From contig OX597831.1 of NCBI GenBank assembly GCA_951406725.2, positions 44,888,001 to 44,952,000 of the forward strand: 64,000 bases of DNA, in the 5' to 3' direction. Made by a program: the position numbers and the translations under genes. The DNA comes from Octopus vulgaris (Eukaryota). The notes below the pieces were generated by a model, which saw only the letters and a program-made list of their open reading frames with translations, made no database searches and had not been told where the DNA came from. Positions 23,521 through 64,000 of the stretch are shown piece by piece (position 1 is the first letter of the stretch; each line of letters begins with the position of its first letter).

Positions 23521-24930
23521 GGAATTCAGATGTGGAATAAGAGGTATATTCCAACGATATCCGTTACCAGAGCTGAGTCGCTCGATCCCATTACTATATC
23601 AAAAGAATTAGCTCCATCTGATATCGTCCATAGCTTGTTGTTGTAATTAATAACGGTTTGACGAACTGTTAAAATTATGTCTACATCTGACTTAGATAAG
23701 CTAGACGTTTTCATTGCGAATATGAGTGCTTTGTTTAGTATTATAGGGTTAATTATGGAGTTGTAGCTATCTACATTTAATTGTATAAATTTGGATTTTT
23801 TAGTTTTCTCTGCTTTCACAAACCATCATATAACCCCCTGAGTGTCCGACCATAAGGAAATTCTAATCTTATTTTTTAGTTTGGGCATTATTTTGTCTAT
23901 GATGTTTTTACTTATACGTCCAATGTCTGATTTTAATGGGCATATTAATCTTACTTTAGGGTCACTATCGAAGTTATTTTTGTGCTCTTTAAGGTTTATC
24001 CTAGGTTTTCTTGGGGCAAATGGTTCAGTCGTATCGTCCATCTCTAGAGTTTTTACTATTTCTAATCCTTTGTAGTTTATATTAGTTAAGATGTTGCTGA
24101 GTGTATGATTGTATTTGCTAAGCATTTCTTTTTTGACTAAACTATTACATAATGTGGTGTCTAGAATATAAAAGTTACTGGTTTTGTCTGCGGGTACAAT
24201 TATTCCGTTTACATCTTTAAAGACCTCCAGTACTTTTTTCAATTTCTGCTTGTTTTCGTTCTTCTTTGTTGGGCATTTCCTGAATTTGATTTTCTGTATT
24301 ATTTCGTATTGTTCTTCCTCGAATTGTGTTAAGTGTTGATTTGTTAGTGGGTCTCTTGCATTTATATCCTTCTGGTGTTCCTGTTTGCTATTTTCCTTCT
24401 CGTGGAAGAATGCTTTCCATCTCATTCTTCTTATGAAGGAGCTTGTGCTGGCTGCTAGTTGTTTTAACTATTCACTTTTGGTTGGTATGCGGATGTCCTT
24501 TAGCGAGAAGTCTAGATTTAGTTTCTCCATCTTTTGACTGTCCGTAGTACTATAATGTAAAAAGCCACTTCGTCCGGTTACCTGGTTTTTGTCAGTGTTA
24601 GTCATGGCATATTCCATTAGGAACGTGGTAGAGTACGATATAAAGCTCGTCCACTTTCATAATTGCCCAGTACTATCCCGTAGTATTATTATATACTTCC
24701 AAGTTTAAGTTTGAGCATTCATCGCGTGTGAATATAAAATTGAAGAAATTGGAGTCAATAAGAAGGAGTACAGTTGGACAGTTGAAACACAACTAGATCT
24801 CATTATGTAAATAAACAGTTGCATGATCAAATGCCTGTATTGCTGGAGAACCACGTTGCGTCGAAACAATTGTAGCGATTAAAGAATAACTGTCCAACCA
24901 TACTCATTGTTGATTCTAATTTCTTCAATT
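23521..24930 (-). mobile_element. Penelope-like element (Hydra-type), 5' half, degraded
   Basis: ATG at 24530 (MEKLNLDFSLK), then MRWKAFF, PADKT, KEHKNNF..PKVRLICP..SDIGRISK and SFDIVMG. A degenerate hammerhead-like GTCGAAACAATTGTA lies on the opposite strand near 24860. Confidence 0.85.
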
Positions 24931-38858: not shown

Positions 38859-41800
38859 CATGTATGTATGTGTGTGTATGTATGTGTGCGTGCGTGTGTG
38901 TGTCAGTATGTGTGTGTATGTATGTGTGTATGTATATGTATGTAAGGTACATGTGCGAGTGTGCGCTTACGTGCGTGTATCTGTGCGTCCCAGCTAGGTG
39001 TTTATAGGAGTGTGCGTATCTGTATGAGTATTGTCCCTGGTGTGTGTTCACGGGCATGTGTGTGTGTGTGCGCGTGGGGTGGGTGGGTGTTTGGGTGTGT
39101 GTATGGGTGTGGGAGTATGTGTGCGTACATGTGCATGTACGTTGTTTGAGTGTGGTGTGTTGGGAGTAGGTGTGTTCGTGGGTACGTGAGTATGTGTGTA
39201 TGTATGTGACTGCATAAGGACAATTATAAAAATTAAAAACAAAAAAAAATAATAATTAATAAACAAAAAATAAAAGATGCGTGGGGAGAAGTGGAGCGCA
39301 GTCACTAAGAGGAGGGGGCTGTGTTGAGTCCGTGTGGGGTTAGAGTCCGTAGAAGGAATATGAACCGTTGCTCCAAGTGAAGCCTAGATTGGGGAGAGCC
39401 GTTGTGTGGGGCAAGATCAAACACCGAGATGTCATCGTGAGAATGGCTGGCCGAGTGGAAGTGCCGTGCGACGGGAGAATTGGAAAGTAGACGAACATCC
39501 CGCAGATGCTCGGCGAATCGGTCTGACAACCGGCGTCCCGTCTGTCCTATATACAGCATCCTACAGCGGTTGCATTTAATGCAGTATATGAGTCCAGACG
39601 AGGTGCACGTAAAGGAATACCTGATACGTACAGTTCGCCGGTTGGAACCGGTGACAGCAGTGGTGTTGGCGACGAAGGGGCAGGTGTTGCAGCGGGATCT
39701 GGAGCATGGGAAGGATCCGAGTGGGGCCGAGGGGGAAGAAGGGAGGGTGCTACGGACCAGGAGGTCGCGTAGATTCCGGGCTCGTTTGAAGGACAGGGGT
39801 GGGTTGGGAAAAATGGGGTGGGTCGTGGAATCAAGCTGGAGACGACGGAAGGCACGAAGTATCTTCCGACGAAGGGGTAGAGTAGAGGGGTGGAAAAGGA
39901 GGGGAAAGGGGTGCGGTTGGGAGGTGGGTGATTGGAAGGAGAAAGGGCGGTGGTGCGGTCGATGCGACGAGCGCGGACGAGGGCGTTCAAGACCAGGGTA
40001 GGTGGGTATCCTCGAAGCCTGAACAGGCGGGCCAGGTTTTGAGACTGGGTCTCTAAATCCTGGTCGCGGCTGCACAAGCGTCGGGCGCGGAGGAACTGGG
40101 AGTAGGGGATAGCCCGTTTGGTGTGGAAGGGATGGGAGGAGGAGAAGTTGAGATAGAGGTGGGAATCCGTGGGTTTGAAGAAGGCGGAGGTGGTGAGAGA
40201 GTGGGAGGGGTGGTCGATGCTGAGTGAGATATCAAGGAAGTTAACGGAAGTATTGGATATGGTGGAAGTGAATTGTAGAGAGGGGTGGAAGTTAGAGAGG
40301 AAAGAGACGAAGTGGCAGAGTTCTTCGCGGGAAAGGGAGTTGGCGCCTATACAGTCGTCTATGTAACGACCGTATAGTTCTGGGGTCGGCCCGGAGAATT
40401 GGGAGAATACTTGGGCCTCAATGTAGCCAACAAAGAGATTGGCGAAATTGGGACCCATTCTCGTCCCCATCGCAACCCCGGACACCTGTTGGTACGTTTC
40501 CCCGGCGAACGTGAAACAGTTGAGGGTTAGGACGAGCTCTGCCAGGCGTAGGAGGGTGGGGGTGCTAGGGGTGGGGTCGGGGCGACGGTCGAGGAAGTGT
40601 TGGAGAGCTAGGAGACCGTCGTTGTGGGGAATTACTGTATACAGTGATTTGATGTCAAAGGTGAAGAGGTGTGAGGGGCTGGAAGGGAAGGAAAAGGAAT
40701 TGAAGAGACGGAGGGCGTGGTTGGTATCATGTATGTGGGAAGGGGGGGCTTTGACTAAAGGGGACAGGATACGGTCGAGGTATAGGGAAATGTGTTCAGT
40801 GGGGCAATTAGAGGCGGAAACGATGGGGCGGCCAGGGTTATTGGGCTTATGAATTTTGGGAAGGAAATAAATGGTGGAGGTGCGGGGTGTGCGGACGATG
40901 AGGTTGGTGGCGTTGGGGTGGGAGCAGAAGAGGAGATGAGTTCGCGGATAGTGGAGGACACTCGCTGTTGGTAGGAAGAGGTGGGATCAGAGGGGAGGAG
41001 GCGATAGAAGAGGGAATTTTGAAGCTGGCTGAGCGCTTCCTCCTGTAGAGATCCGCGCGCCACACCACCACTGCTCCGCCTTTGTCCGCCGGTTTGATGA
41101 CAATGTCATTGCGGCGACGGAGGTGGCGAAGGGCAACCAATTCAGCCTGTGTGAGGTTGTCTCGGAGAGGTCTTTTTAAAAATTGAACCGGTTTACCAAC
41201 GCGTTGCAGTCGTTCACAAACGGGTCTAGGCTACTGAATTGGCCCGGGGGCGGCGTCCAGTTGGATGGGCGGCGCCCCAGCTCCAAAAAGCAATCCTGAT
41301 TGTCGTGACGCTGCGGAGACGCGTGGTAGAAGGCGCAAAGTTTGAGGCGGCGCAGGAACTGGTTGACGTCCGTCCGAGTCTCGATATCGTCACAGTGGCG
41401 CGTGAGAGGCGTGAAGCGGAGTCCCTTACTGAGGAGAGAGCGCTCGGCTGCGGAGAGGGGGAGATTGGGGGGTATAGTGACAACAGTGCGAGGAAGCGGG
41501 CTGGTGGGATGAGTGGGGTCGGGAAGAGGGGGTGCAGATGTTTGGGGAGGAGAGTGGGGGTGGTTAGGTGAAGTGGGGGTAGGCGTAGAAAGGTCAGGTT
41601 GGGGGTGTGTTGGTGCGTGGAGGGGGAAGGGGGAGGGGTGGAGAGAGTCGGGGGAGCTGGAGGATGTGGAGGAGAGGGGAAGGAGGGAAGGAGGTGAAGG
41701 GTTGAGGAGGTGGTGGAGTTTTTTGTTTTTTGTGTGTGTGAGGAAATTATGAAGCTGGTGGTTGAGATTAAGAATGAAGCGGAGAATAGGTTGGGTGATG

Positions 41801-45050: not shown

Positions 45051-47857
45051 GTTTAGAATAAATACTTTTATAAAGAACTAACATCGGAATCTTGGGGGTG
45101 GTACTATTTTTCCAACTTGTTTCATATTTATGTTGTAACCCGCCCCTTTTTAAGAAAGTTTGAGCCACTCTCTAGAAGTAAGAAGAAGAAGAAATAGCTG
45201 AAAGAAATGGAACTCTATCCATTGGATTTTTCCTTAAAAAAACATACCTATCCCGGCGCAGAAGCAATGCCTCAAAAATCTTATTGAAAAAATACGGAGG
45301 ATTTTATCCGAAGAATGAGATGGAAAACTTACTTCTTTGACACGAAACAACAAATTAACGGAAACAAATATGGCCTTAAACTTTCTAAACACCCACCCCA
45401 CCCCACCCACCTACCTATTTCGGAATTAGAAGCTTTTGAAAAAGATCTTTTCGAGCTTATTTGAAGAATAAAATTCCGCAAATTCAACAATCCACTCCAG
45501 AGAGAGAGAGAGAAAAAATTAGAAACGTAAAGAACTCGGATAAGATCTTCGTAAACTCCGACAAAACAGAAGACCTAAACGCGGCTGACAAAGATTTTAT
45601 AAGCGTCTACTTTCGAATGGCATTACATACACTTACAAAAAAGATAACATGAATGTATATAAAGAAGTGAATTTGGAAGTAAGAAGAACTGCTAACAATC
45701 TTAAAGTTAGTGATAGGATAGAATATCTCTCCCTACGCCAACCCTTTATTACCCTGATGGACCACAAACAAATTTCAATAGAAACCCTAAATGTAGACTA
45801 ATTAACCCAGCCGAAACTGAAATATGCATTATTTGCAAAAGCATTTTAGATTCTATTTTTAAGCAAGATAAATAGAGAATTAAATTTCCGGATTTGGGGA
45901 AATAGTAAGCCAGTGATAGATTGGTTCAAAGGAATTAGCCATAAGTACAACTGCAAATTTACGCAGTTACGTTATTGTTGACTTATACCCGTCAATATCC
46001 ATGCTTTTACTTCTTAAAGCATTAGTCTTCGCCAAGCAGTATGTAACCATCGATAACTCGGATTTAGATATTATCCTGCATGCAATGAAATCCCTCCTTT
46101 TTCCCGATGATTCCACCTAGGTTAAAAAGGGCGAGGAATCTCTATCCGATGTACCGATGGGGGCATATGGTGGGGCGGAGTTGTGTTTGTTTATAAGAGC
46201 TTATATTTTGCTTTAACTGCATCGAGATTTTCCTTTTATAGATGCAGGATTATACAAGGATGACAGTCTTATAGTTACCTGTAATTTAAACGGCCATGAA
46301 TTAGATAGACTTAGGAAGAATCTGATTACTTTCTTCCAAAAAATGGGCTTATGGATTACGATAGAAAGTAACCTTAATAACGTAGATTGTTTTAGATATC
46401 AACTTAAATTTGCAATTAGATAAATTTAAACCCTACCGTAAGCCCAATGAAAAGCTATTTCATATTAACAAAGAATTAAATCCTCCACCCGTAATTCTTA
46501 AGAACCTAGTTGGCAATATAGGAAGGCACATATCATCCATATCTTCAGACGAGACAGTATTTCAAAATGCCGTGCCGTATTATGACAATGCATTGAGGAA
46601 CAGTGGATTCTCGGAGTAGATCCAATTTATTCAAACTACTTCTAGTAATAATAGACCACGTAGAACTAGAACTAGGAAAGTTTTGTGGTTTAAACCGGCA
46701 TTTAATATTGCCGAAAAAGCAAATATAGGTGAGGAATTCTCAAAACTAGTTTCTAAAAATTTTCAAACTAGCCATAAGTTCTATAGAATTTTTAATAGGA
46801 AAACACTGAAGGTTAGCTATTCTTGTTGTAAAAATTTCGCCTCTTTTATTAATCAGTATAACACAAAAATTAGAAGCAACCACAGTGCCGAATTTAACCA
46901 GAAGAATTGCAAAGTTAAGAGTTGCTGTCCGTTGCAAGGAAAATGTCTTGAAAAAGGAATAGTTTATAGAGGTAAAGTACGAATAGATGGCTCACAAGAA
47001 TATAAAACATACACAGGGGCTTCGGGAAATTCATTCAAGACCAGGTTTTATTTCCACTGAAATTTTTTCCGACACCCCGAGAACAGGACAGCAATAAGTC
47101 TTGCAAAACATGTATGGCTATTGAAGGAAATTGACACCTGTCCTTTCAATATCAGCTGGAGAATTTTGAAAAAAGCAGCACCATATAAACATGGAGCATA
47201 TAGAAGACCAATGAAGTGCAATCTTTGCCTCTCAGAAAAATTCTTCATCCTGTTCCGGGCTAAACATGCATTGAACCACAGATGAGAACTTTTAAATTGC
47301 TGCAGGCACGCTACGAGGTTTAAAATGTGAACCGAAAAAATACTGTATAGGTAAAATTTTTAACTTTCGAAATATTTTTTGGTGGGGGATTTGGCTTTTA
47401 CACCTAAAATATAGACATCTTTTAGTATTACAATGCTGGTAAATATTTCGCCTTCATACTTTACATTCGACTTTTTAAGAAAGCCTTCGACTGTTTCACA
47501 AATATAAATTAAAATTTTGTCGCATTAAATTTTAATTTTAACTCATTTTTACTCATTTTTCATATTTGAATTTTAAATTATTATTTCAAATTTAAATATA
47601 TATTTTATTTTTTATAGATTTATATTACATCTAATTATATTATTTTTTTCCTTCTACTAAAGCAAATTTTTGATTTAAGATTTTCTTCGATTTTTATAAT
47701 GATATGATTTTAAATCGTAATTGTAATTTCATATAGCCGGTTATTGAAAAGACCGTTAGTTAAAGGGACCAATGAAACAAAATCATTTTCAAATATGTAT
47801 CTATCAACGTAATTGTATATATTATGCATATAACCATATTTTGTTCCATTCTCAACC

Positions 47858-48834: not shown

Positions 48835-49019
48835 TTAATGGTTACATTGTATAATTTTTTCGATCAGAGCGCTTGACGGAAAATCGATAGCAATAAAACC
48901 AAACCGTTTCTTGGGTTTATTTTCTCTTAAGTATTCCTCGAGTCGCCAGTTGATACGATCAGCTACGGCATTAGGATAAGCTCCAGAGCTGGCTCCGCTG
49001 GTAAAGGTTACATAAATAA
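48835..49019 (-). CDS. Bacterial-type PI-specific phospholipase C, last coding exon
   Basis: Polypyrimidine tract plus TTTGCAG acceptor at 49020-49021, phase 1. Encodes (V)IYVTFTSGASSGAYPNAVADRINWRLEEYLRENKPKKRFGFIAIDFPSSALIEKIIQCNH*, the expected PI-PLC C-terminal barrel strands. Not in the ORF track. Confidence 0.9.
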
Positions 49020-49693
49020 CTGCAAACAGGAAAAAAAATACAAGCAGTTATAAATACATCGATATTGTTCATATTTATTGTCGTTGTCGTCGTAAAATAA
49101 TTTAATATGCACAATGCAGTGAGAATGAATTTTGAGTAACCGTTAGCTTAGTGTAATTTTATTTTATTTTAAGGTATGGATGACTTAAATTTACCTTAAA
49201 CCTCCCCGTTCTTCTAAACACCTACAAAATATCTAACTCGCTTTGTAATTATGAGTGCGCCTAACCCAACGTGTGCGTATGCTCACATTTTTGCTAACGC
49301 TTCTATGAGCGTGTGCACTCGTGCCATGCTGCTTGCCCGAAGGCGTTTATACATCCATATAGGTTAACGGTTATTTTCAATACTATTCTCGCTGGATTAA
49401 GTGTTCGCTTCTCTTTTTGTCTTCTGAAATTTTATGTTTGGATCTTCTATATATATGAAGAATTTTCCTCCGTCTGGCTGTTTTTCTCTCTGCAAAACGA
49501 AGAGTTACATTATGGAACAGTCATTTTAACGAGATTTTTTTTTTATTTATCACCCGACGTGACACGTCCGCACCGCCGGATGCTCCTGTACCAGTTTTTT
49601 GTGTGTCCCACAAGAGGAGTCGAAGCTGGATGTGTCGAAACAATTGTGATTAATAATATATTCTCGTATATTCAATCTTCTGTGTTTTATTTG

Positions 49694-49876
<183 letters not shown>

Positions 49877-49877
49877 A

Positions 49878-50177
49878 GTGGAGGCACAATGGCCCAGTGT
49901 TAGGGCAGCGGACTCGCGGTCGTAGGATATCGGTTTCGATTCCCAGATTGGGCGTTGTGAGTGTATATTGAGCGGAAATGCCTAAAAGCTCCACGAGACT
50001 CCGGCAGGGGGGGGGTTGATCGCTGCTGTACTCTTTCACCACTCTTTCTCCCACTCTTTCTTCTGTTGGCCTGCTCGCTTAGCCAGCGGGGTGGCGTCAT
50101 TCGAAGGCTAAAACAATGCGAACGCATTGTGACCAGCGATGTGTAACAACGTCTGATGGTCTGGTCGGTCACGTGAT

Positions 50178-50185
<8 letters not shown>
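49878..50185 (+). mobile_element. tRNA(Arg)-like SINE with a third tail type, intronic
   Basis: Head shared with 1421-1806 and 13992-14330. Inserted in (TA)n. Confidence 0.8.
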
Positions 50186-50217
<32 letters not shown>

Positions 50218-50529
50218 TAAACGAAAGACGGAAGATGGAATATACGAGAATTTTTATTGCTAATCACAATTGTTTCGATCCCTCACGGGTGGGATATTTA
50301 ATATCTGTTTCAGGAGCATCCGGCAGTGCAGGTGTATCTCAACGGGTGATAAATAGATACTCGTTAAAATAACAATTCTGCAAATATCTTCTCATTTAGT
50401 AGGAAGAAAAGCAGCAGAACGAAGGAAATATCTCCATTTATACAGAAGATCAAATATAAAAGTATCGAAAATAACCGTTAACAGACATGGATGTATAAAC
50501 GACCTCGCGCAAGTTGTATGGCGCGTGCC

Positions 50530-51190
50530 GACATCGGACATGTCCCTAATCTCTCAGAGAAGACTAAAAATCTATATAGGATAGACACTCACACTTATGA
50601 CAGGCTGTTAGGAAACAATATTTCACAGAACTATAGGCACACTTCCCCACATACATACAACGTCAACAGTGAAGTCACACAACTAGCTGACGATTTAAAT
50701 CCGAGCAAACACATACTGAGGAACATCAACAACATAAGGAGAACCACCAATGTCTCCCTATGGCGTAGTACCAATGAGGTGGTTGCAGGGTTTAATACCA
50801 ACAAGGGGAGAGGCAGAACGAGGTTCACTAAGTTCTACAAAGTTGATTTTTATCCGTCTATATTTGAAGGGTTACTGATCAAAGACCATTCCTTCGCTAG
50901 GGGCTTCACTGACATTAGCGACAGGGATACAGTTGTCATTATGCATGTCAGAAAAACAGCGCTGTTCAATAAAGGTTCGGCCTGGGTCAAGCAATCCGAC
51001 CCCGTGAGCTCTTTTGACGTAGCGATGGGGCTTATGACAGCGCTGATGTATGCAACCTCATCGATTTGGATATCCTCGTTGCCCTTAAGAAGTTCCCCTC
51101 TGTTCTCTTTGGTCTCTACAAGGATGACGCCCTAGCCATCTCTAGAGGAACCAACGGGTACATCCTAGATAGGCTTAGGAAAGAGTGGGG
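50530..51190 (+). mobile_element. Degraded Penelope (Hydra-type) RT fragment within the PI-PLC intron
   Basis: EKTKNLY, SLWRSTNEV, DFYPSI, SFDVAMG and LYKDDAL. Related pLTR pieces in opposite orientations lie at 49540-49695 and 50216-50330. Confidence 0.75.
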
Positions 51191-51390
51191 CTACATTTCA
51201 TACCGGGTCTATTAACAGCTTTGTTAGGGGCCTGAAATAGGGCACAGTACGATAGGTACTACACCAATTGTAACTACTGTTGCTGAATTGTAGATACCTG
51301 GAAATATGCACTTTAGAGTACAATGGGTATGATACCATGCAGTAGGTACTCTGTAGTAGTTAGTAAAGGCATTAGTAAAATCCAACTTAC

Positions 51391-52033
51391 CGGAACTTCC
51401 CTCGTCCTTGCCGGAAGTGTCAAGCTGACGTTTGACATGCTGCCATTTCTCTCCTATATGTGAGCCCAGAATTGTAGGCACATGCCAGTGATCCTCAATT
51501 GAGAACAAACCACCTCTGTAATTCAGTCCATACGCGGATCCCGGGAAATTTTGCAAGATAACAATTTTGCCACGGATATCTCCAAGAATGGGAATAGAAG
51601 AGAAGGAACTCGAAATTCGACCATCCTCGATATATTTTTGAATAGAGACTTTGAGCGTTTCTTCATAGGAACGGCTATTTTCAACCGTTTGATATTCCTC
51701 TTTAATACGCATAAAGATCGTCTCTGTGGGGTAGTCTGTTAAAAAGCGAAGGGTGTCTCTCAGAACATTGTCAATATCAGCAAATTGGTATTTGACTCCG
51801 TGATGTATATGTAGCCCATTACGAAAATGCCGACAACGAATATCTAAGAAACGTATGCCTCCCAATAGCTGTGGATATAACTCCCAGCATTGACACGCTA
51901 TGAGGTTTCCGCCGTAAAAAGCCATTGTGTTGTGTGTGCCTGGCACGGTTAAGTGTGCTACAGACGTTTGATCTGAGAGTTTCGACATCCAGTTGGGGAA
52001 ATTGGTTTCGGGTTCACTGAAACCGGAGCCCAT
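51391..52033 (-). CDS. Bacterial-type (Bacillus-like, Ca2+-independent) PI-specific phospholipase C, main coding exon
   Basis: NWMS.L.D....LTVPGTHN, QLLGGIRFLDIRCR, HHG, PTETIFMRIKEE and LGDIRGKIVIL. GTAAGT donor at 51390-51385. First ATG at 52033 (the ORF track begins at a TTG). An upstream coding exon cannot be excluded. Confidence 0.9.
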
Positions 52034-57909: not shown

Positions 57910-59191
57910 CGAGGGGCGTTCAATAAGTAATGCCCCTGACCCACTTCCCATAGCAGTAGAGCAACGAAACTTGGCACAGGTATTAGTCTTTTTCAGCATA
58001 GAAACAACCCAGAGTTACGCATTTCTCCCATCGTTTGATACAGCTCTGGAGACCGTTTTCATAGAAGATCCTAGCTTGGTCCTCCAACCACGACGTGACT
58101 TCAGAAATCAAGGCTGCATCATCTGGGAAACGCTTTCCTTTCAAAAACAACTTCATGGCTGGGAAGAGGTGAAAATCAGAGGGTGCAAGGTCAGAAGAGT
58201 AGGGGGATGGGGGAAGTGTTCATAGCCGCACGCCTGTGCTTCTGATCTGGCGACACGCGAGTTGTGGACCGGAGCGTTGTCCTGCAGGTGGAGGATGCCT
58301 TTGCTGATCTTGCCCCGCCTCTTGGTTTTGATAGCTTCTCTTAATTTCCTCAAAAGTGAAGCATGATAGGCTCCTGTAATTGTGGTACCCTTTGCCAGGA
58401 AAGCTGTCATCACTACTCCGTCCTGGTCCCAAAAGACTGTGAGCATGACCTTGCCAGCGGAGGGCTGCACCCTTGCCTTCTTTGGAGGAGGTGAGTCATG
58501 GTGCTTCCACTGCATTGACTGGGCTTTGGTCTCTGGATCATGGTGAAGGACCCAGGTCTCATCCTGTGTAATCAGTCTTTTGAAAAATTTTGACTCATCT
58601 TCTTGGCACATCCCTAAATTCATCCTCGAGCACTCGACGCGTTCTTGCTTCAGGAAAAGTGTGAGCAACCTGGGAATCCCTCTGGCAGACACCTTTTGCA
58701 TATGCAAATGGTCATGAATGATAGTTTCCACAGACTAATCTTGACCTCATGGGCTATTTGGCGAATAGTTATGCGTCCATCTTCCAAAATGGCAGCCTCA
58801 ACTTGACGGACAGATGCCCCATCAATGGCAGAAGGGGTGCGACCAGATCTGGGAGCTGTTTCCACAGAGTTCCCACCATGTTTGAATTCACGATGCCAGC
58901 ATTTTACAAGGTCATATGATGGGGCATCATCACCATAAGTTATTTTCATTTCATCAAAAGTCTCCTGTGGTGTGCGTCATTTCAAATACAAAAACCGGAT
59001 CACTTCTCGACACTCAACAGGCTCCATTTCCCACTTGACTCATTTCAAACACATGTAAATCAGAAACCACTATTTGTTCGGAGCTGTAATTTGCCACTTA
59101 ATCTATAGAGATATAAATAATTACACATGCAAAATCTCAGGTAGATCAATCAACGGCAAGTGGGTCAGAGGCATTACTTATTGAACGCCCC

Positions 59192-59194
<3 letters not shown>
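57910..59194 (-). mobile_element. Full-length mariner (irritans-like), inactive
   Basis: TIRs CGAGGGGCGTTCAATAAGTAATGCC at both ends, 1285 bp. ATG at 59027, early TGA and frameshifts. Motifs ITQDETWV, SAGKVMLTVFWD and LQDNAP. Confidence 0.95.
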
Positions 59195-59259
<65 letters not shown>

Positions 59260-59261
<2 letters not shown>

Positions 59262-59490
59262 GGTCTTTGTTTCTGTGTTTGTCCCCTCACTATCGCTTGA
59301 CAACCGATCTTGGTGTGTTTATGCCCCCGTTAATTTGTGGTTCGGCAAAAGAGACCAATATTAGGCTTACAAAGTATCAGTCTTACAAAGAATAAGGCTC
59401 CGGGGGTCGATGGCTTCGACTAAAAACCCACTAAGGCGATGCTCCAACATGGCCGCAGTCAAAATGACTGAAACAAGAAAAAGAAAAAAA
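59260..59490 (+). mobile_element. SINE 3' portion (CR1-type tail family)
   Basis: Matches 60838-61030. Confidence 0.75.
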
Positions 59491-59573
59491 AGAATACTTT
59501 TAAAATTGGACTTTAGCCGTGTTTGTTGATCCCCAAAAGATTTTTCTTCGATTTTGTATTCTCATAACTTTCC

Positions 59574-59860
59574 GACCCACTTGCCGTTGATTGATCTAGA
59601 TTTTGCATGTGTAATTATTTATATCTCTATAGATTAAGTGGCAAATTACAGCTCCGAACAAATAGTGGTTTCTGATTTACATGTGTTTGAAATGAGTCAA
59701 GTGGGAAATGGAGCCTGTTGAGTGTCGAGAAGTGATCCGGTTTTTGTATTTGAAATGACGCACACCACAGGAGACTTTTGATGAAATGAAAATAACTTAT
59801 GGTGATAATGCCCCATCATATGACCTTGTAAAACGCTGGCATCGTGAATTCAAACATGGT
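59574..59860 (+). mobile_element. Inverted duplicate of the 5' part of the neighbouring mariner
   Basis: Near-identical reverse complement of 58876-59166. Lacks the TIR. Confidence 0.9.
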
Positions 59861-60620
59861 ATGCGTATTGTACACCTCCACCAAAAAAGAGGGAAAAAAA
59901 TCATTAAAAGATATCTATTTTTCTAGATGCTATGAGAAAATAAAGTCGGTGTGTGTAGGTAGACCCTTTTTTATGGTAAATAAGTTTCGGTATGTTTTTC
60001 CTTAATTTTGGAGGTTATGTATCTCGTTCCACTTGGCCGCTTCTGGTGTCTTCTCCCTTTCTATCACTGCCAAACTAAACTTCTCTTCCAAAGAAAGAGT
60101 GGCATAATTTCTTTCTTTAAATTATTCATTTGAATGTTTGAGTGTTGCTGTTGCTAAGCAACAAGACGGGTAAGGATGATAAGGTGATGGTCTAGGACTT
60201 AGGGGCGGGAGACCCCATACCTTAGAAAAAAAACTTTTGTCGTCTTGTTGTAGTCGAGGGCTCTTCGTTGACGCCCGACACCACTGGGAGGTGGCCCTCG
60301 AAGTCGCTGGAAATGGAGATCTCCAGGTCCAAATTCTTGAACGGCTGGATGTATGAAAAGAATATGTTGTCACAAAAATGTGATCATTGATCAGTTACTA
60401 AACGTAGATTTAATTTAATTTTATACACACTTTGCTGTCATTAGACAATTGCAAACATGGTATGTAGAGATAACTTATTTTAACCCATTCGTGCCCACAT
60501 TTTTTAAAATTTGATTTATTACCATATTTTTTTATACAACTTTATCTGATACTAAATATAAAAAAAAAATTTTATTACAATATTTGAAAGACACTCCTGT
60601 CTTGATGACAAACTAAAGAT

Positions 60621-60788
60621 ATAGGCGCAGGAGTGGCTCTGTGGTAAGTAGCTTGCTTACCAACCACATGGTTCCGGGTTCAGTCCCACTGCATGGCATC
60701 TTGGGCAAGTGTCTTCTGCTATAGCCCCGGGCTGACCAATGCCTTGTGAGTGGATTTGGTAGACGGAAACTGAAAGAAGCCTGTCGTA

Positions 60789-60822
<34 letters not shown>

Positions 60823-61030
60823 CGTGTGTTTGTGTGTCTGTGTTTGTCCCCCTAGCATTGCTTGACAACCGATGCTGTTGTGTTTACGTCCCCGTCACTT
60901 AGCGGTTCGGCAAAAAGAGACCGATAGAATAAGTACTGGGCTTACAAAGAATAAGTCCCGGGGTAGATTTGCTCGACTAAAGGCGGTGCTCCAGCATGGC
61001 CGCAGTCAAATGACTGAAACAAGTAAATGA
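60621..61030 (+). mobile_element. Full-length composite SINE: tRNA-like head, internal microsatellite, CR1-like tail
   Basis: Head GGAGTGGCTCTGTGGTAAG..GGTTCAGTCCC, internal (TA)n(TG)n, and tail GGCGGTGCTCCAGCATGGCCGCAGTC..TGACTGAAAC. Confidence 0.85.
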
Positions 61031-62087
61031 GTAAAAGAATTTAAAAAAAAAGAATATCTCAGAAAAATACAGGTATTGCAGAAATATGATGGATTATCCT
61101 TCTGGTCTTAAAAAAAAGGACCATAGGAGCTAATGGGCTATTACAATATTTATGTGTACATTTCCATAAATGTCTTTCTTGCGCACTCAGACCGATCCCT
61201 CACCCCTACACATACACGCACACAGACATAGTTCTTAGAGGATCAACAATCATGGCTTACGTGTTTAAGTTTTTCTTATTTTGGAATAAAGAAAGGTACG
61301 TAAAAATAACTTCATTTGATACAAAACTTCACTCACGCACGCACACACACACACACACTTCCAGACAGAAGCTGGTTGTAGATAAACATAGTTCAATACA
61401 ATTGTGATTGGGTAAAATTTCAGTACGAATTATTTGCTATTTCTATATAAACACAACATAAAAATAATGTGACTTGGCATAAAAGAAAAAAAAAATTGGC
61501 AATCTTCACTTGAAATCAACTTTTTTTATGTTTTAATTTGTGATGAGCGAATTTAAAAACCTTATTTTCGTATGAACTTAAAATATTTTTTTTCAGAAAT
61601 CGCACAAAATATATAAAACACCAAAAATTGCGGGTGATTACGTCGTTTTTCTTCAAAAGAAACGAAGGAAAAAAGGATCGTTAAATGAGAAGAGAAAGAT
61701 ATTTTCCAGACATTTAGCTGTTGTTTCTAGTATATCGGGTTTTCGGCTGGAGGTTTGATACTTTTTCGTTTGCTGTTTCAGGAGAAATCTACGCATGTGT
61801 AAAGCATACGGTGGTTTTGCCTTTTTGAAAGCGGGGTGGTTTGAGGAAGGGAATGGAGTGTTTTCTAAAAAAAATTAAAATTACAAAAATAAAAAAAAAA
61901 TTTTGCAGGCTCGTAATCTCCTTCCGTATTTTGCTGCGTGGACTAAAAAAAATTGTAAAAAGTGAAAAATTAAAATATTGGTACGGGAAGAAGGGAAATT
62001 ACAATATTGTAAACGTTGTTTTTTGCAAGGTCGTAAGCCCCTATATCGAAAACAATAATTCGGAGAAATTTAAAAAACAAAATATTT

Positions 62088-62260
62088 AACAAAAACATCT
62101 GACCGTCTGCCAAGCAAATGGAGAGCAGTAATTGAAGTAGATGGTGAATATGCTCCGGAATAATCATTTAAAGATGTTTTTGTTACATGTTGTTGTTTTT
62201 GTTTTGTTGAATAAAATTTGTTGAAAATAAAAAAGCCGCAATAATTATGCACCAACCCAA
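62088..62260 (+). mobile_element. Mariner 3' end fragment
   Basis: Encodes RLPSKWRAVIEVDGEYAPE*. Right TIR CCGCAATAATTATGCACCAACCCAA followed by TA. Confidence 0.75.
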
Positions 62261-62283
62261 TATATACATTCAGCACCCCTTCC

Positions 62284-64000
62284 TGTATATGTATATGGAA
62301 AGAAGAAATATATTACCACGCAGGGAAAAAATATAGGAGGATTTGTTTTGGGATTTGAAAATGCACCTGAATCAAAAAAATGTGTAGTCGTTTTTTAAAT
62401 AGTTATTCACATACCAAACTAGTTTCGACAATTTTTTGCTTATCAATGGTACGAATATACAAAAAAAAAGGGTGGGGTTAGGAGATCTTAAAGTTACAAG
62501 GTAAAAATTGTATACGTGTATATGTATATGGAAAGAAGAAATATATTACCACGCAGGGAAAAATATAGGAGGATTTGTTTTGGGATTTGAAAATGCACCT
62601 GAATCAAAAAAATGTGTAGTCGTTTTTGAAATAGTTATTCACATACCAAACTAGTTTCGACAATTTTTTGCTTATCAATGGTACGAATATACAAAAAAAA
62701 AAAAAAGCTGGGGTTAGGAGATCTTAAAGTTACAAGGTAAAAATTGTATACGTGTATATGTATATGGAAAGAAGAAATATATTACCACGCAGGGAAAAAT
62801 ATAGGAGGATTTGTTTTGGGATTTGAAAATGCACCTGAATCAAAAAAATGTGTAGTCGTTTTTGAAATAGTTATTCACATACCAAACTAGTTTCAACAAT
62901 TTTTTGCTTTTCAATGGTACGAATATACAAAAAAAAAGGGTGGGGTTAGGAGATCTTAAAGTTACAAGGTAAAAATTGTATACGTGTATATGTATATGGA
63001 AAGAAGAAATATATTACCACGCAGGGAAAAATATAGGAGGATTTGTTTTGGGATTTGAAAATGCACCTGAATCAAAAAAATGTGTAGTCGTTTTTGAAAT
63101 AGTTATTCACATACCAAACTAGTTTCGACAATTTTTTGCTTATCAATGGTACGAATATACAAAAAAAAAAAAAGCTGGGGTTAGGAGATCTTAAAGTTAC
63201 AAGGTAAAAATTGTATACGTGTATATGTATATGGAAAGAAGAAATATATTACCACGCAGGGAAAAATATAGGAGGATTTGTTTTGGGATTTGAAAATGTA
63301 CCTGAATCAAAAAAATGTGTAGTCGTTTTTGAAATAGTTATTCACATACCAAACTAGTTTCGACAATTTTTTGCTTTTCAATGGTACGAATATACAAAAA
63401 AAAAGGGTGGGGGTTAGGAGATCTTAAAGTTACAAGGTAAAAATTGTATACGTGTATATGTATATGGAAAGAAGAAATATATTACCACGCAGGGAAAAAT
63501 ATAGGAGGATTTGTTTTGGGATTTGAAAATGCACCTGAATCAAAAAAATGTGTAGTCGTTTTTGAAATAGTTATTCACATACCAAACTAGTTTCGACAAT
63601 TTTTTGCTTATCAATGGTACGAATATACAAAAAAAAAAAAAGGCTGGGGTTAGGAGATCTTAAAGTTACAAGGTAAAAATTGTATACGTGTATATGTATA
63701 TGGAAAGAAGAAATATATTACCACGCAGGGAAAAATATAGGAGGATTTGTTTTGGGATTTGAAAATGCACCTGAATCAAAAAAATGTGTAGTCGTTTTTG
63801 AAATAGTTATTCACATACCAAACTAGTTTCGACAATTTTTTGCTTATCAATGGTACGAATATACAAAAAAAAAGGGTGGGGTTAGGAGATCTTAAAGTTA
63901 CAAGGTAAAAATTGTATACGTGTATATGTATATGGAAAGAAGAAATATATTACCACGCAGGGAAAAATATAGGAGGATTTGTTTTGGGATTTGAAAATGC
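62284..64000 (-). repeat. Tandem array of ~234-bp units (alternating A/B dimer), each with a hammerhead ribozyme; retrozyme-like
   Basis: GGAAAGAAGAAATATATTACC recurs at 62297, 62530, 62766, 62998, 63233, 63466, 63702 and 63934. The array continues beyond the window. Confidence 0.95.
62404..62457 (-). ncRNA. Type I minimal hammerhead ribozyme, U3-A8 variant (first of 7 complete copies)
   Basis: Minus strand reads TATTCGTACCA-TTGATAA-GCAAAAAATTGTC-GAAA-CTAG-TT-TGGTATGTGAATA. Predicted cleavage (GUU) between 62417 and 62416. Confidence 0.7.

Follow-up and report, generated by a model that had tools for sequence, protein, structure and literature searches.

Our analysis of a 64,000-nucleotide stretch of the Octopus vulgaris genome (contig OX597831.1, forward-strand positions 44,888,001 to 44,952,000, hereafter the window) revealed a tandem array which, in our judgement, was quite probably formed when the terminus of a Penelope-like element (PLE) was amplified in place by DNA duplication, and which carries an inherited, probably slow and dimer-dependent hammerhead ribozyme. 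The array occupies the right end of the window.

Positions 62284 to 64000, minus strand: tandem array of a 232-236-bp unit, each unit consisting of the PLE 3'-terminal ~226 bp, a few flank bases and a 4-nt linker.

TRF described this stretch with a period of 232, 7.3 copies and 97% matches, together with a second period of 468. Seven full units and a partial eighth, with unit lengths of 232-236 bp, lie within the window, and the array extends 379 bp beyond it to end at G000:C18:44952379, which gives nine units in total. The unit is non-coding and low in GC (31%). A homogeneous satellite of about 234 bp had been proposed here by an earlier sequence-only reading; the array itself was confirmed at this place, but it is not simply homogeneous and contains T-tract and N7 subtypes. 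The longer T-tract type is common to units 2, 4 and 6, the N7 change U>A is common to units 3 and 5, and unit 3 carries in addition C11.1>U. Most likely the two N7 changes are one event, copied through a two-unit duplication, and together with the T-tract types they indicate that the array grew partly by two-unit steps. The motif variants had earlier been presented as falling on tolerated positions; the changes are there as described, but they represent only about two events, too few to show selection.

A generic type I hammerhead scan of both strands of the window gave nine matches, seven of which are the seven complete array units, all on the minus strand; the remaining two are isolated, have a stem I of 5 bp and are at chance level. 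The array motifs are as follows.

Positions 62404 to 62457, minus strand: type I hammerhead motif of unit 1 (U3 at 62446; predicted cut 62417/62416).
Positions 62636 to 62689, minus strand: hammerhead motif of unit 2, from the type I scan (U3 at 62678).
Positions 62872 to 62925, minus strand: hammerhead motif of unit 3, with N7 U>A and C11.1>U (U3 at 62914).
Positions 63104 to 63157, minus strand: hammerhead motif of unit 4, from the type I scan (U3 at 63146).
Positions 63339 to 63392, minus strand: hammerhead motif of unit 5, with N7 U>A (U3 at 63381).
Positions 63572 to 63625, minus strand: hammerhead motif of unit 6, from the type I scan (U3 at 63614).
Positions 63808 to 63861, minus strand: hammerhead motif of unit 7, from the type I scan (U3 at 63850).

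The U3-A8 core, G10.1-C11.1, the GAAA box, the palindromic stem III and the GUU site were present in 7/7 of these units. Stem I consists of 7 bp, a 2-nt bulge and 4 bp, the bulge forming loop 1, while the stem II region of 13 nt holds about 4 bp with a bulge, without an extra 5' base, and is closed by a run of A as loop 2. This anatomy, and the occurrence of a minus-strand type I U3-A8 hammerhead in every unit, had been read correctly from the sequence, as had the position of the cut, predicted in unit 1 between 62417 and 62416, the latter being the first base 3' of it. It had also been anticipated that standard searches would miss the motif, and Rfam indeed returned no hammerhead family match for 58000-64000 at E<=10. 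Elsewhere in the window, a lone stretch at 46743-46766 (-) looks similar to the core and palindrome but has hardly any stem II and lacks stem I; the similarity is likely due to chance.

The missing Rfam match, the two isolated chance-level matches in the window and the weak folding z-scores given below would all fit a hammerhead-like motif that arose by chance in AT-rich repeat DNA, a reading that became scarcely credible when the motif was followed through the genome. The core pattern has 246 exact genome-wide matches versus 0 for the reversed control, and the 100 matches listed are singles or inverted pairs. Among the PLE loci fetched, 15 of 19 contain the U3-A8 motif, in four forms: the array form, a sister form with a different stem II, a young form with different stems I and II and a different palindrome, and a third form (L123:1667) in which the stems differ again. 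In the aligned forms U3, U4, G5, A6, A8, A9, GAAA, C15.2, G16.2 and U16.1 are invariant, N7 and H17 vary, and U3-A8 is the only core seen across these four subfamilies of one PLE lineage. Stem cells pair at 95% across the forms versus 21-51% in slid controls, and 6/9 stem pairs change on both sides. Covariation reached 0.60 versus 0.19 +/- 0.06 after shuffling and at most 0.25 after sliding, values that describe a set of 7 related sequences from four forms and are not a probability. The stem III palindrome changes on both sides between subfamilies with its self-complementarity kept, and two-sided change occurs within the old family too, where 17 of 36 copies have the array palindrome and 4 and 2 have two other self-complementary forms.

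The position of the motif is equally constant. In L074 some 1 kb separates it from the preceding endonuclease-like frame, which is on the ribozyme strand, and in L107, L109 and L123 it follows the ORF at a distance of 0.2-2.1 kb, so that four PLE subfamilies of this genome carry it behind an RT-endonuclease ORF with compensatory stems. With an invariant core and compensatory stems I and III at the same place in all four, chance resemblance is regarded as refuted, and the earlier assignment to a minimal hammerhead of the Penelope pLTR type is borne out. The array motif is, as judged from sequence, a PLE pLTR dimer-type (minimal type I) hammerhead. From the covariation and the published PLE motifs we infer that the parental PLE lineage kept a dimer-dependent hammerhead under selection. 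The third form, at L123:1653-1710, has a 2-bp G-C stem II and lies 220 nt behind a PLE ORF that is 57% identical to the young family.

A genome search with one unit yielded 926 candidates, and the 40 that were scored gave 51 matches, 15 of them in a local gene cluster at 92-100% identity and 36 elsewhere at 76-88%; with 40/926 candidate copies scored, a younger subfamily may have escaped notice. The dispersed copies are not of unit length. They have a common 3' end, followed mostly by TA-rich repeats, run 5' for variable lengths of up to more than 2 kb, and in several cases carry an inverted partial copy at the 5' side, which characterizes them as 3' ends of old PLEs, single or inverted, whose cores have decayed. 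The two longest (L073 and L074) have 2.4 kb in common, including broken RT-motif and endonuclease-like frames on the ribozyme strand; a search for a PLE with the same pLTR had been recommended, and these old-family copies, which carry the motif behind the frames, are what it produced. The decayed frame shows 67-69% identity to the sister family and 60% to the ORF of a young PLE family.

Many intact 776-aa ORFs of this young family were found (150 scored of 12186 candidates; RVT_1 E 1.8e-7), and its ORF contains a C-x4-C-x2-C linker; an intact ORF of the array's own family was not among the same 150 scored of 12186 candidates. The endonuclease in the PLE frames is presumably of GIY-YIG type, an assignment made from sequence motifs. 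Pfam gave nothing above the cut-off for the five open frames of the decayed element and detected no endonuclease domain in the decayed frames or in the young ORF, and a PDB sequence search with the young 776-aa ORF gave 0 matches. The young, Neptune-like PLE is represented by L107:2710-7200 (G000:C18:59021500-59031499) and L086:421-2748, where a 2-kb microsatellite-rich 3' region ends in the U3-A8 motif. In this family two extra bases separate stem II from GAAA, a 37-nt core stretch occurs in 666 identical copies, often as inverted pairs, and a three-copy tandem lies at C2:55956679-55968369. For studies of PLE ribozyme function the motif of the young family is a better substrate than the array.

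The text of PMC8557442 reports features of this kind, namely 5' truncation, inverted 5' copies, microsatellite ends and a CX2-5CxxC linker, from PLEs and from the Neptune clade, and their match with the octopus copies identifies the unit as a PLE terminus. By these sequence features, the array unit corresponds to the terminal ~226 bp (pLTR region) at the 3' end of a PLE copy that is old, dead and 5'-truncated, and its parent would be Neptune-like, a clade assignment made by linker and RT motifs alone.

The Penelope reverse transcriptases of the window had been suggested as mobilisers of the array. The RT frame at 39550-40986 (-) was rejected in this role, being 29% identical to the RT of the array's family and belonging to another one. 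It and a second, putatively PLE-like frame at 23829-24467 (-) belong to other families, and neither is detected by Pfam.

The manner in which the array arose is recorded at its junctions and left edge.

Positions 62497 to 62522, minus strand: first unit-to-unit junction, composed of the element end, four MITE TIR bases, a 4-nt linker and a restart inside the PLE 3' region.
Positions 62269 to 62287, minus strand: remnant of a MITE terminal inverted repeat (~17 bp plus TA); the ~210-bp MITE is whole at the paralogous L031:6418-6647.

The MITE is a TA-flanked TIR element which we presume to be mariner-type. A search of the whole genome (2.8 Gb, up to 2 mismatches) found the junction nine times, eight times in the array and once in a paralogous dimer, and nowhere outside the gene cluster. 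Same-strand core pairs at a 218-248-bp period likewise number nine genome-wide and lie in the same places, and no other array of this period with the exact 13-nt core end exists in the genome. The mobilised retrozyme or circular-RNA system proposed earlier, for which a search for dispersed arrays had been recommended, is not supported: the junction is restricted to the cluster, and the dispersed copies are old PLE ends. The four MITE bases follow 0/16 of the dispersed 3' ends examined, and a 42-bp inverted repeat at a paralogue begins with them.

Six sites in the cluster hold the element, in 1, 1, 1, 1, 2 and 9 copies. At 44956634 and 45037476 there is one copy with a longer PLE 5' part, the same MITE-type end behind it and no junction, and at 44956634 the MITE is whole, with 42-bp inverted arms. 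Four sites, the array included, share both flanks and hold 1, 1, 2 and 9 copies, and two blocks of the cluster with 98-99% identity are distinguished by a single unit. A LINE-like element that contains long open frames (758 aa) has inserted into a MITE some 370 bp to the right of the array (L031:2754-5810, G000:C18:44952753-44955810); it shows 99% identity to two partial copies in the cluster.

These sites point to a history in four steps. A 5'-truncated PLE copy inserted a single time close to a PI-PLC-X gene, with the MITE arriving later at the TA run behind it, and the block then multiplied along with the gene cluster to give the six sites, two steps that can be followed at the sites themselves. 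As the junction suggests, a DNA-level tandem duplication, taking ~226 bp of the PLE end and four MITE bases with a 4-nt linker, would have followed in one site lineage, and unequal crossing-over, partly in two-unit steps, may have led to nine copies here and two at the paralogue, with one left or restored at the others.

Alternatively, a multimer could have been made at the RNA level, by rolling circle or by PLE partial-tandem synthesis, inserted whole and later collapsed to one or two copies at the paralogues. PLEs insert as partial tandems according to the text of PMC8557442, and in this genome a PLE copy of the sister family (L118:3062 and 3505, -), whose two hammerhead motifs lie on one strand at a distance of 443 nt, is a PLE-made partial tandem, which makes an RT-made first duplication from read-through RNA possible as well. 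The junction, common to two paralogous sites, predates their split, and it was found in assembled contigs of runs X1, X2 and X8, with three organism labels, which agrees with such an early multimer and excludes an assembly artefact. An RNA-level origin of the whole array is nonetheless distinctly improbable: the junction contains bases of the locus's own downstream MITE, the two sites that retain the longest and most ancestral PLE copy together with the MITE contain a single unit and lack the junction, and the units differ by 0-4% from each other versus 22% on average from the dispersed copies, so that the array copies are far younger than the insertion.

Does the motif still matter at this locus? 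The comparison used 36 dispersed copies, 3/39 stretches having been dropped as unalignable to the unit and the near-duplicates L020 and L028 both being counted; substitutions were counted outside the T-tract and end columns. In these copies conservation of the 11 core bases is 0.88 versus 0.85 +/- 0.03 at base-matched positions (p=0.12), and the whole motif is intact, by the criteria of the analysis, in 2/36. Random decay of the core without covariation had been named beforehand as the pattern that would refute the retrozyme proposal, and core decay is what the dispersed copies display, the whole 11-base core being kept in 7/36. Across the 15 local copies, 4 changes fall in the 42 motif columns versus 20 in the 166 others (p=0.45), and one of these changes breaks stem I at a paralogue; both comparisons have low power, the local one with its 24 events. 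Conservation of the unit does not exceed that of its flanks (about 96% versus 96-100% of aligned columns).

The amplified copy itself is unusually intact, with 0/42 differences from the family majority inside the motif and 19/151 outside (Fisher p=0.007); when only columns with a 60% or 75% majority are used, p becomes 0.044 and 0.071, and all these p-values are inflated because the finding was picked for its intact motif. This intact state counts against the reading of the motif as a passenger and cannot be fully explained. As far as the sequences tell, there is no sign of mobilisation or selection at the array locus, where the motif appears to be a passenger.

Folding predictions suggest that two units would be needed. 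The monomer is not special in energy relative to shuffles (z -1.43 and -0.23), its predicted fold pairs both core boxes with each other, and its stem III (P 0.001) cannot form. In all six neighbouring pairs the palindromes are predicted to form the 6-bp stem III duplex between units with P 0.60-0.96, as had been supposed, and the predicted two-unit fold contains cross stem I and the stem III duplex. In 6/6 dimers the open, active core is predicted to cost 3.8-6.6 kcal/mol more than the minimum-energy fold, with P(10.1-11.1) <=0.022, in a model that ignores tertiary contacts. The hammerhead is an inherited one, and any minus-strand read-through could let neighbouring palindromes pair, with slow cleavage at GUU; by these models, dimer cleavage of array RNA is possible and probably slow. 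The N7 change U>A (62914 and 63381, -) weakens the predicted inactive pairing of the core boxes, and in the pair starting at unit 5 the open core comes to lie 3.8 instead of 6.6 kcal/mol above the minimum, which is probably incidental.

The same predictions bear on the idea that the array is a newborn working retrozyme, duplicated as DNA, transcribed from the minus strand and cleaved as dimers into 232-236-nt monomers or circles that are yet unspread. All nine units retain the core, the founder motif was unusually intact, and neighbouring palindromes pair readily; unit size and the 31% GC fit the non-LTR retrozymes described in the text of PMC7229834, and two consecutive full-motif units agree with the structural part of the definition of "active" in the text of a recent preprint (10.64898/2026.07.22.740005). 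We nevertheless consider it unlikely, given the energetic cost of the active core, the circular monomer, which at -17.4 versus -20.0 +/- 4.0 for shuffles is no more structured than these, the lack of any junction-bearing copy elsewhere in the genome and of an intact family ORF among those scored, and the poor cleavage of PLE minimal hammerheads in vitro reported in the text of PMC4209133.

Four runs were compared with the single-copy paralogue L011:1200-2000, all as assembled contigs, with X1 and X2 taken to be RNA by guess. X1 and X2 contain unit-sized contigs (265 and 267 nt) with the tandem joint and leave the right flank uncovered; X9 bridges the flank, and X8 is also without cover. Since the unit-sized contigs fit a circle and a low-depth nine-copy array equally, nothing is drawn from them. 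The ribozyme strand of the unit contains no AATAAA or ATTAAA, and the unit no B-box-like match.

A broader version of this idea, in which we place a small degree of belief, would see in the array a retrozyme at birth: the terminus of a dead PLE, silent as one copy, would have become cleavage-competent once duplication gave it a dimer partner, and read-through RNA would yield 232-236-nt monomers or circles. If true, nature would have supplied a dose series in the paralogues with 1, 2 and 9 copies, and the upstream RNA of the PI-PLC-X gene nearby might be affected by the cut.

Positions 48838 to 52033, minus strand: PI-PLC-X-domain gene with two coding exons (52033-51392 and 49023-48838), one of four tandem paralogues.

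This gene provides the context by which the duplicated block is recognised. Its coding start is 10.2 kb from the array, which is on the 5' side and on the same strand, and all four paralogues have an element copy 5.8-13 kb 5' of the coding start on the gene's strand. Such an arrangement, with a founder motif that was intact, is what one would see if the element had been exapted as a cis element, a copy-number-dependent cleavage switch in a long 5' leader or upstream transcript of the PI-PLC-X genes that is silent at one copy and cuts at two or more. The shared position, however, follows from block duplication, stem I is broken at one paralogue, the motif changes at the neutral rate, and no 5' exon was found beyond the array with eight protein queries, which mapped coding exons; we regard an exapted switch as very improbable. 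The other paralogues lie at G000:C18:44967272-44975271, 45018069-45022876 and 45047163-45054283. Proteins with 98-100% identity to exons of the cluster carry the label Octopus vulgaris. After cephalopods, the next relatives, at 32-53% identity, include PI-PLCs from frog, fish and Bacteroidota-type bacteria, and a recent expansion of the genes is possible.

The reading we prefer, in-place duplication of a PLE terminus, makes this a modest finding: both the ribozyme variant and the transposon class were known, and the amplification was of an ordinary kind. It illustrates at base level how a retrozyme-looking satellite can arise from a PLE end without an RNA step, a warning to pipelines in which any tandem hammerhead counts as an active retrozyme. 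It also provides a test set for what PLE hammerheads do, since a single motif is available in 1, 2 and 9 copies alongside the young family of intact PLEs in this genome.

The U3-A8 PLE hammerhead is not new. Natural U3-A8 covariation was reported in 2011 (PMC3088659), and minimal hammerheads of this kind, with ~1,300 such matches in S. mansoni, were described in Schistosoma PLEs (Cercyon) by Cervera and De la Pena in 2014 (PMC4209133), where the PLE motifs cleaved weakly and as multimers only, as given in the text of that report; a review covers hammerheads of such kind (PMC6765202), and the giant squid genome paper lists 235 hammerhead-1 loci in its text (PMC6962438). A published description of the octopus motif was not among the papers that the literature searches listed, and the supplements of PMC4209133 and PMC8557442 may list one. 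Compared with the PLE pLTR hammerheads as set out in the text of PMC4209133, the octopus motif shows the same type I topology, U3-A8, palindromic 15.2-16.2, G10.1-C11.1 and place in the PLE terminal repeat, and both occur genome-wide mostly as single or inverted copies. The 2014 consensus in that text has a stem II of 7-8 bp and an unpaired base between 9 and 10.1, with variants outside the consensus also given, whereas the octopus stem II has ~4 bp with a bulge and no extra base between A9 and 10.1; the octopus copy differs further in its amplification into a local array and in having U3-A8 as the sole core in four subfamilies. The resemblance to Neptune PLEs, as portrayed in PMC8557442, would extend to an RT followed by a presumed GIY-YIG-type endonuclease, and includes C-x4-C-x2-C in the young ORF, 5' truncation, inverted copies and microsatellite ends, the clade being assigned by motif alone.

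With the metazoan non-LTR retrozymes (Cervera and De la Pena 2020, PMC7229834) the array shares its form, a non-coding, low-GC tandem unit of ~234 bp with a type I hammerhead in each. These retrozymes, by the account in that paper's text, have canonical hammerheads, thousands of genome-wide array copies and circRNAs that were shown, while the octopus unit, known here from DNA, is confined to one gene cluster and has a motif of the PLE minimal type; the form of a non-LTR retrozyme is present and mobilisation to unlinked loci is not. The nearest parallel is the preprint of Li, Clavereau and Pollet (2026, 10.64898/2026.07.22.740005), whose text proposes local amplification of a PLE terminus, through unequal crossover, to form tandem repeats, the same route as proposed here, and in which 8/9 predicted dimers were without cleavage and most families had at most seven units. 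That work, to judge from its text, rests on co-occurrence and trees, mainly in vertebrates, whereas in octopus the steps are visible at one locus, from paralogues with 1, 2 and 9 copies and from a junction that includes flanking DNA, and the array offers a clear snapshot of the published model of how a retrozyme satellite is born.
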